From a candidate division LCP-89 bacterium B3_LCP (GTDB taxonomy: Bacteria; Electryoneota; B3-LCP), in NCBI GenBank assembly GCA_005223185.1, contig NJBN01000007.1, forward strand, positions 1 to 64,000: a stretch of 64,000 nt of DNA, written 5' to 3'. The number at the start of each line of letters is the position of its first letter. Position 1 is the stretch's first letter. A program made the position numbers and the translations under genes. Of the stretch, positions 14,166-55,375 are shown piece by piece. Below the pieces are notes generated by a model, which saw only the letters and a list, made by a program, of their open reading frames with translations, made no database searches and was not told the DNA's origin.

Positions 14166-14430
14166 ACTATTTGGAGAGGTAGCGCGGGGGCTTGCTCCCG
14201 CCATGTAAATTCGTGCCGCTGACTCCCCGCAGTCAGCGGCTATAACAACCGCAGAGTACGGGGACTCTGCGGCACTGGAATAGCCTCTCACCGCCCGGAA
14301 ATGTCCGAAGGACTCCTATGGAGAATTTCCAGGCTAGTCTTATGCTGTCCCGCTAAAGCGGGACGCTTAAAAACCTTTACGTCCGTCAGATGACGGACAG
14401 AAATTGAATAGCCCGGGAATTCATTCCCGG
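14166..14430. repeat. Mosaic palindromic repeat, copy 2 (modules E, D, B, A, C), the most complete copy
   Basis: E hairpins gccgctgact-ccccgc-agtcagcggc and ccgcagagt-acgggg-actctgcgg; D ccgaaggactcctatggagaatttccaggct; B gtcccgctaaagcgggac; A gtccgtcagatgacggac; C cccgggaattcattcccggg. Confidence 0.75.
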
Positions 14431-19589: not shown

Positions 19590-19750
19590 GGTATTTTCAT
19601 TAGTTATGCTGCCAACTCCCTGCAGTTGGCAGCACTGCCTCAGAATCAATTCTGAGGCTTAAACTGATTCAAGAACACTGAAGTGATCTTCTTAGCGTCC
19701 TACTTTAGTGGGACAGCATTTTTATAGCTCGGGAATTCATTCCCATGTCT
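19590..19750. repeat. Mosaic palindromic repeat, copy abutting the tmRNA 3' end (E-like hairpins, B, C)
   Basis: gctgccaactccctgcagttggcagc; gcctcagaatcaattctgaggc; gcgtcctactttagtgggacagc; cgggaattcattccc ends 8 nt from the tmRNA 3' terminus. Confidence 0.65.
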
Positions 19751-19757
19751 AACTTTG

Positions 19758-20114
19758 TGGAGACGGCGGGAATCGAACCCGCGTCCGAAATAGTGACCGA
19801 AGGACCCGCTACAGGCTTAGTCGCTGTTTAGTTCTCGCTAACCATCAAATCCAGCGACAGATCAGATGGGAAGCCAGCCTCGGAATTCTCACGTCAGGCA
19901 TTGAGGCGCTGCTTGACGCCAGCCCATCATTATGACGCCCGCATCCCAACTCGATGGGCAAGAATCGGGTCGGACGTAGCCGCTTCTTTATTAAGCAGCT
20001 AAGGCATAGCCGTGATTATCGGCATTTGTGATTGTGGCGGGTTTATACGGGGTCACGCCATCCCCGACCTGCTGATCCAGCTTCCTCCTATCCCGTCGAA
20101 ACCAAGTCGTCCCC
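19758..20114 (-). ncRNA. ssrA: tmRNA (SsrA)
   Basis: 5' GGGGACGACTTGGTTTCGACGGGAT and 3' GGTTCGATTCCCGCCGTCTCCAC(A); acceptor stem includes the G3-U pair; internal tag reading frame ...ADNHGYALAA then TAA TAA; about 357 nt. Confidence 0.9.
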
Positions 20115-34074: not shown

Positions 34075-34192
34075 GATTGTAAGGGTAAACAGATTTTTAC
34101 GGAGCAGTCCGTCGGCTGACGGACGAAAACTCATTAAGCGTCCCACTTCAGTGGGACAGCATTAATTAGCGAGGAAATTCATTTCCTCGCGG
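34075..34192. repeat. Mosaic palindromic repeat, copy 3 (modules A, B, C)
   Basis: gtccgtcggctgacggac; gcgtcccacttcagtgggacagc; cgaggaaattcatttcctcg. Confidence 0.7.
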
Positions 34193-34216
34193 TATAAGAT
34201 TACTATAATCTACACC

Positions 34217-47734: not shown

Positions 47735-49561
47735 TTGAAACACGCAACCGGACACACCAGGTATTCTCACGGAAGAAGATCAACCGCATCTGCGGATAGT
47801 GAACCCCATGACAACTGGACAATTCGGGACACTATCCGCAGACTTATTCCCTATATGAAGCCCTACCGGAAAGGATATTCGGTAGGGTTTCTCTGTATCG
47901 TCTTCACCAATCTCTTTGCAGTGATCACACCTCTGGTGCTGAAGTTCGGAATCGAAGACTTGCAGCAGGGCGTAACCGCCTCCAAGATTGCCTATTATTC
48001 AGGTATCATAGTAATTATCGCTCTTTTTGCGGGAATATTTCGTTATTTCATGCGCCGCGTAATCGTTTCCGTTTCCCGCAGAATTGAGTTCGACATGCGC
48101 ATCCGCTACTTTGCCCACCTGCAGGTACTATCACCGTCCTTTTACAATCGCCAGCAGACTGGCGACTTGATGACACGCGCTACCTCTGACATAGAAGCTG
48201 TTCGCATGGTGTTCGGTCCCGCCGTCATGTATTCGGTCGATACCTTGCTGACTGCGGCATTTGCCTTGAGCGTGATGTTTGCGCTGTCCGTCCCGCTTAC
48301 TTTAACGGTACTGACGCTAGCACCCATTTTGTCCACTCTAATATACTTTTTAGCCAAGAATATTCTTCGGTTTTCCCTGCAAGTCCAGGAACGTTACAGC
48401 GATTTAAATGCCATGATTCAAGAGCATTTATCCGGCGTCAGAGTAGTACGCAGCTACTGCCAGGAAGACCCGGAGAAGGAGCTTTTTCACAGCTTGAATA
48501 ACAAGTATTTCAAAGCTAACATGAAACTGGTCAAGATTCAGGCTATGCTGTTCCCGTTGTTCTATTCTATTTTCGGAGTGGGTATGGCTCTGATTTTATA
48601 CATGGGCGGGCGTGCCATCATATCTGGAACGATATCATTAGGCGATTTTGTGGCTTACAGCGCCTACGTATCCATGTTAGCCTGGCCCGTGATGGCTATC
48701 GGATGGATACTGAATATGATTCAACGCGGGTCAGCTTCCATGCGTAGAATCGTTCGTATTATGGATATAAAGCCGGAAATATCTGATCAGGTTGCAGGTG
48801 GACAATTGCGGGATATTATTGGCAATATACGCTTTGAAAACGTCACTTTTTCCTATCCCGACACCGATACTGACGTGCTTGAGAAAATAGACCTGGATAT
48901 ACCAGCAGGATCTTCTCTGGGCATTGTTGGCTATGTGGGTTCAGGTAAAACAACTCTGCTGTCTTTGATACCACGGCTCTATGAAGTATCATCGGGCAAA
49001 ATCTTGATAGATGACGTTCCGGTAGAAGAGATCCCGCTGGACGTTCTGAGAAAAGAGCTCGCCATAGTTCCTCAGGACAGCTTCCTGTTCAGTGATAAAC
49101 TGGAAAGGAACGTTCTCTTCGCTGATAGAGAGTATGAAGAAGGCGATCTGCTGAAATATGCATCAGCTTCCGGTATCGATGAAGACGTGAAGGAATTTCC
49201 CGACGGTTACGACGTCTGGGTGGGTGAAAGAGGCATCACGCTCTCCGGAGGTCAGAAACAGCGCACCAGTCTAGCGCGAGCATTGTCAGCTGAACCGAAA
49301 ATACTCCTGTTAGATGACTGTTTTTCAGCGGTTGACACCAGCACGGAAGCTGACGTCATCAACAACATCTCAAGCCTCCTGAAGGGCAAGACGATCCTTA
49401 TCGTCGCTCACCGGATTTCCACCTTGCAATGGGCGGATCAAATTATCGTGCTTCATGAAGGGAAAATAACGGAAAGAGGCAACCATGATAAGTTGCTGAA
49501 GATAAAAGGTAAGTACGCTGAACTTTACCACAAGCAACTTTTAGAAGCGGAACTAAGGTGA
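47735..49561 (+). CDS. ABC transporter, fused permease/ATPase (MsbA-like exporter)
   Basis: Six-TM domain followed by an NBD with Walker A GYVGSGKTT, signature LSGGQKQR and Walker B ILLLDD. Confidence 0.9.
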   Translation: MKHATGHTRYSHGRRSTASADSEPHDNWTIRDTIRRLIPYMKPYRKGYSVGFLCIVFTNLFAVITPLVLKFGIEDLQQGVTASKIAYYSGIIVIIALFAGIFRYFMRRVIVSVSRRIEFDMRIRYFAHLQVLSPSFYNRQQTGDLMTRATSDIEAVRMVFGPAVMYSVDTLLTAAFALSVMFALSVPLTLTVLTLAPILSTLIYFLAKNILRFSLQVQERYSDLNAMIQEHLSGVRVVRSYCQEDPEKELFHSLNNKYFKANMKLVKIQAMLFPLFYSIFGVGMALILYMGGRAIISGTISLGDFVAYSAYVSMLAWPVMAIGWILNMIQRGSASMRRIVRIMDIKPEISDQVAGGQLRDIIGNIRFENVTFSYPDTDTDVLEKIDLDIPAGSSLGIVGYVGSGKTTLLSLIPRLYEVSSGKILIDDVPVEEIPLDVLRKELAIVPQDSFLFSDKLERNVLFADREYEEGDLLKYASASGIDEDVKEFPDGYDVWVGERGITLSGGQKQRTSLARALSAEPKILLLDDCFSAVDTSTEADVINNISSLLKGKTILIVAHRISTLQWADQIIVLHEGKITERGNHDKLLKIKGKYAELYHKQLLEAELR

Positions 49562-49627
49562 CTGAATAGTTGATCGAATAGGTCAATCAAAAAGGGGGCT
49601 GTCCCAAAAATCGACTAGTCATCCTGT

Positions 49628-49740
49628 CCATAGGACTCCTTCGGAGAGCTCGCTGAAAGCGAAGCGAAGAATCTCTTGTTCTTCTGTGAATCCCGTAGTC
49701 GGGGTCGCCTGCGACCATGGTGTCCCTGACCCCGACGAGA
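49628..49740. repeat. Composite repeat: D module (reverse) plus F element with left inverted repeat
   Basis: ccataggactccttcgg; gcgaagcgaagaatctc; core ccgtagtcggggtcgcctgcgaccatggtgtccctgaccccgac. Confidence 0.7.
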
Positions 49741-49753
49741 TACATTCCAGTAC

Positions 49754-49786
49754 AAAAAAAAGCACCCTTCTCTGGGCGCTTTTTTT
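49754..49786. terminator. Bidirectional Rho-independent terminator
   Basis: aaaaaaaa-gcaccc-ttctct-gggcgc-ttttttt sits between the convergent ABC exporter and tonB. Confidence 0.7.
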
Positions 49787-49804
49787 ATAAAAGTATCTTT
49801 ATCC

Positions 49805-50461
49805 TTAGTAATTCTTCACTTCAAATCGGATTACCTGCTGCATAGGGACTTTCACGAAACGGTCGCGCTGGCGCCCCGGCTTAAATTTCATGGCTGATAT
49901 GGCTTTAGTACCTGCTTCACCGAAGCCTAACCCCTGCGGTCTTTCCTGAAAGACCTTGATGTTGGTCGGCTTACCAGTTTCATCGACTATGAACTGAATG
50001 ATACACACTCCACCAACACCAGCATTAGCAGCCATTTCAGGAAATAGATTATTCCTCTGGATGTAATCGTAGATAGCTTGCGAACCACCGATTAACTCCG
50101 GTTTCTGTTCCACCGCGAAGAAATCAACAATATCGCCACCTTCTGGCGGCGGTGGTGGCGGTTCATCGCCCAGGTCCCAGTCGGTGTCATCGATGGTCAT
50201 ATCATCTTCAATGTCCGCATCATCGGACTCAATGGGTATGGTCGGTCTGGCAGGAGGCGGTGGTCGCTTTATCTGGTGGGTGATGGGTATGTCTTCTACT
50301 TTGATGATTACTTCTTCGACTTTTGCCTTTTTGGCCGTAATCGCCATCTGTTTGGATGATATGAATGTCAGCGTCATCAGCAGGAGGACAACAACTAAAG
50401 ACGCCTCTATGATCTTGGGATACTGCAGACGCAGATCCACTTGCGGATATTTCTTTACCAT
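49805..50461 (-). CDS. tonB: TonB family energy transducer
   Basis: N-terminal TM anchor, Pro-rich spacer (PPPPARPTIP ... EPPPPPPEGG), C-terminal TonB domain. Confidence 0.8.
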   Translation of the reverse strand: MVKKYPQVDLRLQYPKIIEASLVVVLLLMTLTFISSKQMAITAKKAKVEEVIIKVEDIPITHQIKRPPPPARPTIPIESDDADIEDDMTIDDTDWDLGDEPPPPPPEGGDIVDFFAVEQKPELIGGSQAIYDYIQRNNLFPEMAANAGVGGVCIIQFIVDETGKPTNIKVFQERPQGLGFGEAGTKAISAMKFKPGRQRDRFVKVPMQQVIRFEVKNY

Positions 50462-53699: not shown

Positions 53700-55004
53700 T
53701 TATGACGTCCTATTCTCGTGAATCCAGGTCAATATTTTTATTTCCCCATCAGTCAATTCCTTCTGGCGGCGCCTCATCACGGATCGAGCGGTCTCCAGAG
53801 TTGGTTTTAAGGGATACTTAGTGAGTTTTTCCGCGCCGCCCCAGTTGAATGAAGGCACGTAACGAGGCGGAAAACCGGCTCCGAATATCATGCTTCCCAC
53901 ACCCATTACAGTTCCTGTATTGAAGACAGACCCGATGGCGCTCTTGGAATGATCCCCCATCATCAAACCAACGAAAAGCTGTCCGGTATCCACTAACTTA
54001 GATCCTACCTGAACTTTGACGGGAGTATAATTGTTTTTAAGGTTGGACGTTTCCGTTCCCGACCCCAAATTGCACCAGGATCCTATATACGAATGCCCTA
54101 AAAAGCCACCGTGCTGTTTGTTGGAATAATCCTGTATTATCGAAACCGACACTTCGCCGCCCATGCGGCTCTGTTCGCCGAAGCAGCTACCCCTGATGTG
54201 CGACAGCGGTTTCACCTGAGATCCTGCACCTAAATACACGGGACCTTCTATAATTGAGTTATAACCAATGATGACTCCTTCATCCGCTACAATCGGCCCG
54301 TTTGAGGCGTCAAGCACCACGCCGGACATTATATCTGATCCATCAGCTAAATAGATGTCTTCTTCGGAAACCAGCGATGCATTCTTATGAACATTTCCGT
54401 CTAATTGCCCCAGCGAGCGCAATTCACGAGCTTCAATATCGATCTGCTCGTTCATTGCACCGATGGCCTCCCAGATGTAGGTTACCAAAACACCAATATT
54501 GGTCAGCGCTTCCGTAGTCGGGGTCGCCTGCACGCCTGGTGTCCCTGACCCAGACAGTTTCACTGCCTCTATTGAATTAAACTCATGCAGATCAAGTGCC
54601 GTTCCTGCTTCCCATCCTGAAGGTGGATTACCACAGAAAGCGATAACTCTACCGTCAGAAACTAACGCATCACCTGGCGCGAGATCGAGAACACGCTTGA
54701 AATTCACACCCGGTATCAAACAGCCGTTAATCCATAGCAGATCTATTCCTTTTTCAGGAGAAGGCTTCGCACCGGGATAATTCCCGGAAAGATACGGCCT
54801 GGTAAAATGATACTCTGCCGCCTGTGGAAAATACGCCAGTATTTTTTCCCGCAGAGTACGAATACCACAACGCAAATCCCATACCGGCCGTGTCAATGAT
54901 AGCGGCTCGGTGGTTATGGCAGCTTGATCTTCAAATAAGACGATAGCTCCAGGTGATTTCACCAAAGTTGATCCTTGAATTGTATATGATCGTGTAATTG
55001 TCAT
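53700..55004 (-). CDS. Putative sugar nucleotidyltransferase-like protein with C-terminal left-handed beta-helix (hexapeptide repeats)
   Basis: N-terminus AIVLFEDQ ... LTRPVWDLRCGIRTLREK; C-terminal hexapeptide repeats; carries an in-frame copy of the F repeat core (SGSGTPGVQATPTT); first ATG used (track ORF starts at TTG 55016). Confidence 0.7.
   Translation of the reverse strand: MTITRSYTIQGSTLVKSPGAIVLFEDQAAITTEPLSLTRPVWDLRCGIRTLREKILAYFPQAAEYHFTRPYLSGNYPGAKPSPEKGIDLLWINGCLIPGVNFKRVLDLAPGDALVSDGRVIAFCGNPPSGWEAGTALDLHEFNSIEAVKLSGSGTPGVQATPTTEALTNIGVLVTYIWEAIGAMNEQIDIEARELRSLGQLDGNVHKNASLVSEEDIYLADGSDIMSGVVLDASNGPIVADEGVIIGYNSIIEGPVYLGAGSQVKPLSHIRGSCFGEQSRMGGEVSVSIIQDYSNKQHGGFLGHSYIGSWCNLGSGTETSNLKNNYTPVKVQVGSKLVDTGQLFVGLMMGDHSKSAIGSVFNTGTVMGVGSMIFGAGFPPRYVPSFNWGGAEKLTKYPLKPTLETARSVMRRRQKELTDGEIKILTWIHENRTS
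54512..54555. repeat. F repeat core inserted in-frame within a CDS
   Basis: ccgtagtcggggtcgcctgcacgcctggtgtccctgacccagac; about 90% identical to the intergenic cores at 49693..49736 and 55054..55097. Confidence 0.65.
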
Positions 55005-55028
55005 TCTGAGCCCCAATTTATTGGGGTG

Positions 55029-55372
55029 AAGAATCTCTTTCTATCACGCGAATCCCGTAGTCGGGGTCGCCTGCGCCTATGGTGCCCCTGACCCCGATAT
55101 GAGACTCTTCGCTTCGCTCAGAGTGACACTCTCTGCATATACTCATATTGCCCTTTTTTTCAAGGGGGAGTAAGAGGGATAAGAATAATCCCCTAAAAAC
55201 CAACCACTACGAATAATATGAAAGACACCGCCCGAAAATGTCCGATGGACTCCTATGGAAAATTTCCAGGCTAATTTTATGCTGTCCCGCAAAGCGGGAC
55301 GAAAATAACTTGGAGCGTTCTACTTCAGTAGGACTGCATTGCATTAGTCCGGGAATTTATTCCCGGATGACA
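55029..55372. repeat. Composite repeat: F element with terminal inverted repeats (MITE-like) plus D, B and C modules
   Basis: gaagaatctc ... core ccgtagtcggggtcgcctgcgcctatggtgcccctgaccccgat ... gagactcttcgcttcgc; then tccgatggactcctatggaaaatttccaggct, gtcccgcaaagcgggac, tccgggaatttattcccgga. Confidence 0.7.
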
Positions 55373-55375
55373 CCC

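Follow-up and report, generated by a model that had tools for sequence, protein, structure and literature searches.

Probable lineage-specific in-frame insertion of a REP-like intergenic repeat into a GlmU-like gene of candidate division LCP-89

Introduction

How does a short hairpin repeat that otherwise lies between genes come to be read in frame within a gene for a conserved enzyme, and in which direction did the sequence travel? The question is raised by a GlmU-like gene of the candidate division LCP-89 bacterium B3_LCP, the source of which is a metagenome-assembled genome. An original prediction held that a 44-nt repeat core, the F core, is contained in this coding sequence on the coding strand. 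This is borne out in the window, by which we mean the whole 64-kb stretch of DNA that was analyzed, and the homology is slightly longer than first thought, extending over 54510-54556 (47 aligned nt) rather than 54512-54555.

That REPs and Rickettsia palindromic elements (RPEs) can lie in frame within genes, and that MITEs can be fused to coding sequences in the same way, is well established (PMC3733652; PMC10969869). GTAG-tagged REPs are characterized by stems of 6-13 bp with an unpaired GTAG at one end and, in some families, by large loops with GC-rich ends, and their movement is attributed to RAYT tyrosine transposases cutting at GTAG (PMC3733652). REPs lying wholly inside the ORFs of known proteins have been described in several species, e.g., Opitutus terrae (Di Nocera et al., 2013, PMC3733652), and further intragenic examples are the short RPE-4 and RPE-6 of Rickettsia conorii (PMC3733652). 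MITEs (ERIC, BOX, Nezha and others) are non-autonomous and can likewise be read through when they are intragenic (PMC10969869).

The event discussed here, in which an intergenic, REP-like repeat very probably inserted in frame within one lineage, is of an already known type and reveals no new mechanism. Its significance lies in a REP-type hairpin repeat that adds a surface loop to a conserved enzyme, with syntenic orthologues available as empty-site controls. It would also extend the range of intragenic REPs and RPE-like events to LCP-89, a candidate phylum without described repeats of this kind, and it illustrates how an annotated gene model, in both its start codon and its extra loop, can be shaped by repeats.

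The GlmU-like gene and its additional segment

The host gene (53700..55004, minus strand) encodes a protein of 434 residues which is identical to the hypothetical protein CEE37_10610 of B3_LCP. It is a GlmU-like two-domain transferase and a member of TIGR03991 (alt_bact_glmU), which it matches in full length (residues 21-428) with 365.6 bits against a curated cut-off of 225.3. The N-terminal NTP_transf_4 domain occupies residues 21-159 in the Pfam match (PF13562, 86.8 bits) and is followed by a left-handed, hexapeptide beta-helix. All 52 invariant columns of an alignment with 34 homologues are kept, and the AlphaFold model of the protein (35 sequences, pTM 0.79) has a fold that resembles ST0452, a two-domain sugar-1-phosphate nucleotidylyltransferase/acetyltransferase.

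In the same alignment, in which the homologues are 40-66% identical, a block of 19 residues (LSGSGTPGVQATPTTEALT, aa 150-168) is present in the window protein alone and corresponds to a gap in all others. Protein alignments and the codon view place this lineage-specific insertion of 57 nt, or 19 codons, at 54501..54557 on the minus strand; as the insertion has EAV(K) and EAL(T) at its borders, the position of the gap is ambiguous by at most 9 nt (alternative 54510-54566). The comparison with orthologues had been set beforehand as the test by which the prediction could be refuted, and the segment was found in none of 119 homologues. In this 120-protein alignment, the stretch matching residues 140-180 comprises 22 residues in 112 of the 119 homologues, and 41 residues only in the window protein. 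The coding (minus) strand of the F core reads L-SGSGTPGVQATPTTE-A in the frame of the gene; the predicted length of about 14 residues has to give way to the 19 residues of the actual insertion. The repeat accounts for 47 of the 57 inserted nucleotides and leaves about 10 unexplained. The insert has a GC content of 0.65, the remainder of the gene one of 0.47, and no other 57-nt window in the gene reaches so high a value.

Two close homologues could be traced to contigs (L089 and L090/L091) in which the gene order is the same as in the window, namely ACT-Obg-DprA-DUF362-GlmU-like-S41-ExbB-ExbD-ExbD-TonB, and this identical order of ten genes identifies their GlmU-like genes as positional orthologues. 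Neither locus contains a copy of the F core, and both orthologues are devoid of the insertion. Since the insertion is absent in all 119 homologues and the syntenic loci are free of the repeat, the direction of travel can be regarded as settled, from the intergenic repeat into the gene and not the reverse.

The predicted location of the segment, between the N-terminal nucleotidyltransferase domain and the beta-helix and with the frame kept, agrees with both the Pfam limits (21-159) and the model, in which the insertion follows the last strand of the N-terminal domain and precedes a long helix (177-195) leading into the beta-helix. The pLDDT of the model dips at this site, with means of 50 for residues 151-160 and 66 for residues 161-170, compared to 84 and 86 in the flanks. 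An intein or intron was rejected as an identity for the segment, since 57 nt are too small and the frame is read through. In one homologue (P0023), a separate low-complexity, Gly/Ser-rich insertion of about 26 residues (GVPPLIKGGQGGSSSGQGGSSSGQGESSSGRGG) occupies another loop of the N-terminal domain (alignment columns 81-106), and as this site differs from that of the window protein, the GlmU-like family appears to tolerate loop insertions at more than one site.

The segment had also been called exapted. The insertion into the gene and the preserved frame are upheld, but not the function which this term implies, as tolerance alone is supported: we infer that the loop is tolerated rather than useful, and the GlmU-like protein may even be impaired by it. 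It would be a rather far-fetched reading that a genuine function was gained, with the Gly/Ser/Thr/Pro-rich loop serving as a flexible hinge or recognition segment that alters the cooperation of the nucleotidyltransferase and acetyltransferase domains. F would then be a REP family still active in an uncultured phylum, and its mostly stop-free antisense strand would repeatedly give rise to new protein loops.

At the other end of the gene model, the annotated ATG (55002-55004) is located inside a 27-nt repeat unit, at the base of a hairpin of -57.9 kcal/mol. The orthologues start with TTG or GTG about seven residues ahead of an IVLFED motif and after a Shine-Dalgarno-like site; the window has AAGGA 6 nt upstream of a TTG at 54963-54965, and a GTG at 54960-54962. 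The true start of the gene is thus probably this TTG and not the annotated ATG, and the first 13 annotated residues are probably untranslated.

The repeat unit and its copies

The F unit consists of GTAG followed by a GC-rich stem of 8 bp (TCGGGGTC/GACCCCGA) around a loop of 21 nt, which has a weak inner pairing (CGCC/GGTG). Copy A (49691..49737, plus strand), recognized by its 20-mer, by profile search and by its fold, is intergenic and flanked by the convergent genes of an ABC transporter (47735-49561, plus strand) and of TonB (49805-50461, minus strand). Copy B (55053..55099, plus strand) is intergenic as well and precedes the host gene in the spacer that separates it from the DUF362 gene, the two genes having the same direction. 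The 8-bp stem is perfect in both. Copy C (54510..54556, plus strand), within the coding sequence, has the structure TTCC-GTAG-TCGGGGTC-(21-nt loop)-GACCCAGA-CA, and seven of its eight stem positions are paired, the mismatch being a C to A change at 54552. On the plus strand, the copies fold with -19 to -25 kcal/mol (copy B: -25.1 kcal/mol, z -4.6).

The relatedness of the three copies is supported by several searches. The window contains the 20-mer CCGTAGTCGGGGTCGCCTGC in exactly three places, each time on the plus strand (49693, 54512 and 55055), compared to a chance expectation of 0.02 matches even with up to three mismatches allowed, and none of 100 shuffles reached three occurrences; the 3' arm GGTGNCCCTGACCCNGA is present at the same three sites. 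An nhmmer profile of the F core recovered the three copies with E values of 1e-15 to 1e-16, the next match in the window having an E value of 2.4, and no reverse-strand copy was found when both strands of the window were searched. A fragment of tRNA or tmRNA, or an attachment site, was considered as the nature of the F core and rejected, as the profile search shows no other similarity in the window. Over the 47 aligned nucleotides, copies A and B share 42 identities, A and C 40, and B and C 39, which means that the in-gene copy is 83-85% identical to the intergenic copies and not much more diverged from them than they are from each other.

In all three copies the GTAG is unpaired and directly precedes the stem, including copy C with its otherwise unrelated flanks. 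Outside the hairpin, the copies have this GTAG and the two bases before it in common and nothing more, which points to an asymmetric, GTAG-headed mobile unit. Copies A and B are nested in other repeats, and these flanking repeats are absent from copy C. GACG, the reverse complement of CGTC, is found 3' of the stem in copy A alone. Also 3' of copy A, at 49738-49790 and between the two convergent genes, a hairpin with an A run on one side and a T run on the other (AAAAAAAAGCACCCTTCTCTGGGCGCTTTTTTT) looks like a bidirectional intrinsic terminator.

The two strands of the unit differ in coding capacity. Two of the three frames of the GTAG strand contain a stop, i.e., the TAG of GTAG and a TGA, while the opposite strand is open in all three frames in copies A and C and has one stop, in the loop, in copy B. 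As copy C contains no stop in any frame in the antisense orientation, the reading frame of the gene runs through it. In the sense of the mRNA, the hairpin of copy C folds no better than shuffled sequences (z 0.17), compared to z values of -2.0 and -2.4 for A and B, and this loss goes back to one substitution in the stem, TCG to TCT, which is synonymous. The change may reflect neutral decay or selection against structure in the mRNA, between which one substitution cannot decide.

Beyond the window, the exact 20-mer had six matches in a genome collection that excludes the source genome, each of them single, with unrelated flanks, located in GC-rich coding DNA and attributable to chance. An 18-mer of the F core had two matches in viral contigs, both attributable to chance, and a metagenome scan with a pattern comprising both arms and the loop ends of the core gave no match. 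At the gathering threshold, Rfam recognized only tmRNA in the window, and permissive scans of both intergenic elements yielded nothing credible; the F core and its partners are thus not a described RNA family.

When a second metagenome scan required the GTAG head and the stem but left the loop free, most of the matches lay in GC-rich coding DNA and can be put down to chance. Not so in five contigs with a GC content of 45-52% (L031, L034, L035, L053 and L057), which carry GTAGTCGGGGTCGTCCCTGCCTG...GGGACCCCGAC in intergenic positions, amid other hairpin modules. By its sequence, this repeat is a sister family of F, with the same head and outer stem and a different interior. It adjoins another module (GGCTGGCTCAGGGACGAGCCAGCC), and in one of the contigs (L057) it runs into the longest ORF of a DegT-type aminotransferase gene at the 5' end of that ORF. 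Pfam scans of the ORFs beside the five sister repeats identified housekeeping genes only and no transposase.

Origin of the insertion

We propose that a single GTAG-headed F unit was inserted into the GlmU-like gene of the LCP-89 lineage after its split from the known relatives, and that it entered with the GTAG strand antisense to the gene. The product would be a surface loop rich in Gly, Ser, Thr and Pro, (L)SGSGTPGVQATPTTE(ALT), placed where the nucleotidyltransferase domain ends and immediately ahead of the linker helix to the beta-helix domain. The unit would have been moved in trans by a REP-type transposase (RAYT-like, IS200/IS605-family tyrosine) encoded elsewhere in the genome, and the substitution by which the mRNA-sense hairpin was lost (TCG to TCT, synonymous) would postdate the insertion. 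While the insertion itself is very probable, the RAYT-type mobilization step, taken alone, is a serious possibility that falls just short of being probable. Among the 38 ORFs of the window that were scanned, no transposase of any kind was found.

A different mode of transposition is suggested by the flanks of copy C, where a candidate decayed target-site duplication (TCAGCGCTTC on the left, 54503..54512, and TCACTGCCTC on the right, 54560-54569, plus strand) has 7 matches in 10 positions, its two copies being spaced exactly 57 nt apart. The insertion could on this basis be ascribed to a MITE-like element of 47 nt with 8-bp inverted ends, which together with a 10-bp target-site duplication generated by a DDE transposase would total exactly 57 nt. 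Only four of 1238 positions in the gene score 7/10 at this offset; moreover, the two sequences encode EAL and EAV, both of which resemble the single EAP-like motif of the orthologues, and of the three differences between them two are synonymous. The flanking 10-nt direct repeat may thus be a decayed target-site duplication, which would be a better fit to a DDE-type than to a RAYT-type mechanism. However, a match of 7/10 is weak and its position was noticed, and chosen, after inspection. Furthermore, the element is asymmetric, with its GTAG head on one side only, remains under the MITE size of 70-300 bp and is without terminal inverted repeats of 15-30 bp (PMC3733652). On balance we consider this origin unlikely.

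The insertion might also have arisen locally and without transposition, by template switching, patch repair or gene conversion with the nearby copy B as donor. Copies B and C are only 543 nt apart and on the same strand, the hairpin core alone was transferred, without the flanks that A and B have in common, and the window is without a transposase, all of which would suit such local copying. Nevertheless, copy C resembles the distant copy A (40/47) at least as much as it does B (39/47), and has a loop unlike either; the flanks in the gene share no microhomology with those of B beyond TCC-GTAG; and GTAG-headed units with the same stem are dispersed in other metagenome contigs, as would be expected of a mobile family. 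A local origin is therefore, in our view, unlikely.

A much smaller probability attaches to an assembly artefact, i.e., a repeat wrongly joined into the gene by the metagenome assembler. Misassembly typically occurs at repeats, and the source is a metagenome-assembled genome; yet both flanks continue one and the same gene, which stays in frame and is collinear with its orthologues, and an assembly graph could lead through the repeat only if the gene already contained it. Copy C also has a loop sequence of its own and two private substitutions, and is thus not a duplicate of A or B. Finally, the reverse direction, in which the segment would be native to the gene and the intergenic copies derived from it, and mere coincidence can both be excluded for practical purposes, as nothing beyond the similarity itself speaks for them and as they are at odds with the absence of the segment from all 119 homologues, the chance expectation of 0.02, the GC content of the insert, which is foreign to the gene, the better hairpin in the intergenic copies and the occurrence of the same head and stem in intergenic repeats elsewhere.

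Comparison with known repeat families

Insertion of a mobile, GTAG-headed unit thus remains the preferred reading, and the F element indeed has the structure of a GTAG-tagged REP. It has an unpaired GTAG at one end beside a GC-rich stem, the 8 bp of which are within the REP range of 6-13, and G-T pairs are possible on one strand; its loop may be comparable to the complex loops with GC-rich complementary ends in the families GTAG-3, 14 and 15. Its intergenic copies are located between convergent (A) or same-direction (B) ORFs, its units are nested in other palindromes, and a single unit within an ORF is read through in frame, all as described for GTAG-tagged REPs. Unlike most of these families, F has a loop as long as 21 nt (the described range extends up to 27 bp), no RAYT gene flanked by the repeat, which would constitute a REPtron, is found among the scanned ORFs of the window, and the three copies are a count for 64 kb only. 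Moreover, they are all singletons in one orientation, without head-to-head or tail-to-tail dimers, and LCP-89 is not among the eight phyla covered by the survey of these repeats (PMC3733652).

The parallel that had been drawn to Rickettsia palindromic elements holds for the in-frame insertion, whereas the closest analogue is the intragenic GTAG-tagged REP (PMC3733652) and not the RPEs of about 150 bp. RPEs are specific to Rickettsia, measure about 100-150 bp and encode about 30-50 residues (Ogata et al., 2000, 2002, as summarized in PMC3733652 and PMC10969869), and the short RPE-4 and RPE-6 are tagged with CGTC and not with GTAG (PMC3733652). In both cases a palindromic repeat lies in frame in a conserved housekeeping gene, preserves the ORF and adds a peptide to a protein that is apparently functional. 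However, F is set apart from the RPEs by this description, with 47 nt, a GTAG tag and 19 residues including flanks, and its host is a free-living, uncultured lineage. F is likewise no MITE: MITEs are 70-300 bp long with terminal inverted repeats of 15-30 bp and target-site duplications, whereas copy C has 47 nt and only its 8-bp stem, and the long inverted arms of copy B are absent from it.

Taken by its structure, F is also not a REPIN. REPINs, as Bertels and Rainey reportedly described in 2011, are inverted REP doublets mobilized by REP-associated tyrosine transposases (RAYT). F resembles them in the GTAG-headed hairpin as the recognized unit, presumably mobilized in trans as single-stranded DNA, but its core has no inverted partner in the window, where all three copies are on the plus strand. 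The small dispersed repeats of heterocystous cyanobacteria, which Elhai and co-workers are said to have characterized in 2008 as imperfect palindromes of 21-27 nt, inserted in repeats and occasionally in conserved genes, provide a further comparison. The nesting of the F core in a pair of 27-nt units is reminiscent of them, although they have a different sequence, belong to a different phylum and are shorter than F.

Composite elements and neighboring repeats

A full F element with inverted repeats had been predicted at 55029..55110, upstream of the host gene. Such an element is present and extends over 55000-55127, but its outer inverted repeats do not belong to F; they are copies of a separate 27-nt unit (GTCATTCTGAGCGAAGCGAAGAATCTC). 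The left arm (55000..55037, plus strand), which contains the annotated ATG, is a variant of this unit, GTCATTCTGAGC[..]GAAGAATCTC, in which the central GCGAAGC is swapped for the hairpin CCCAATTTATTGGGG. The right arm (55101..55127, minus strand) is a 27-nt unit (GTCACTCTGAGCGAAGCGAAGAGTCTC) with two mismatches to the widespread consensus, and it pairs with the left arm into a hairpin of 133 nt (-57.9 kcal/mol, z -5.7). The supposed full element is therefore an F hairpin at the tip of a long hairpin whose two units belong to another family, a very widespread one, and the gene received only the core because the core is the complete F unit. Similarly, the left outer arm at copy A (49618..49677, plus strand; GTCATCCTG...GCGAAGCGAAGAATCTC) is a 27-nt unit with extra hairpin modules inserted.

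The 27-nt unit itself is a hairpin, ATTCTGAGC-GAA-GCGAAGAAT, around the mini-hairpin GCGAAGC, and reads VILSEAKNL, or EILRFAQND on the opposite strand. A 22-mer of it has 21 exact matches in viral contigs (L007-L027), with unrelated flanks and a sharp 5' boundary, and some of these copies form inverted pairs 20-50 nt apart. The unit has no match in Rfam, and a literature search for it or its translations found no paper.

The spacer between the DUF362 and GlmU-like genes (55005-55375) is 371 nt long in the window, compared to 27 nt in L089 and 13 nt in L090, and is filled with no fewer than four repeat families (the F composite, plus copies of D6, D4 and D2 at 55226-55364), which indicates that a repeat mosaic has expanded within an apparent operon. 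Other hairpin families, all intergenic, are found at 2287-2362, 14289-14428, 19689-19744, 34123-34198 and 55226-55364, and their modules are combined in varying orders, like BIME mosaics. Examples are GCGTCCCAC-TTGA-GTGGGAC(A)GC, with the compensatory variants GTCCCGC/GCGGGAC and GTTCTAC/GTAGGAC; CCCGGGAAT-TC-ATTCCCGGG; and a 68-nt unit whose copies at 14289 and 55226 share 91% identity. Directly next to the tmRNA gene (19755-20114, minus strand; Rfam RF00023, 193 bits) lies a copy of the D4/D2 hairpin repeats (19689-19744).
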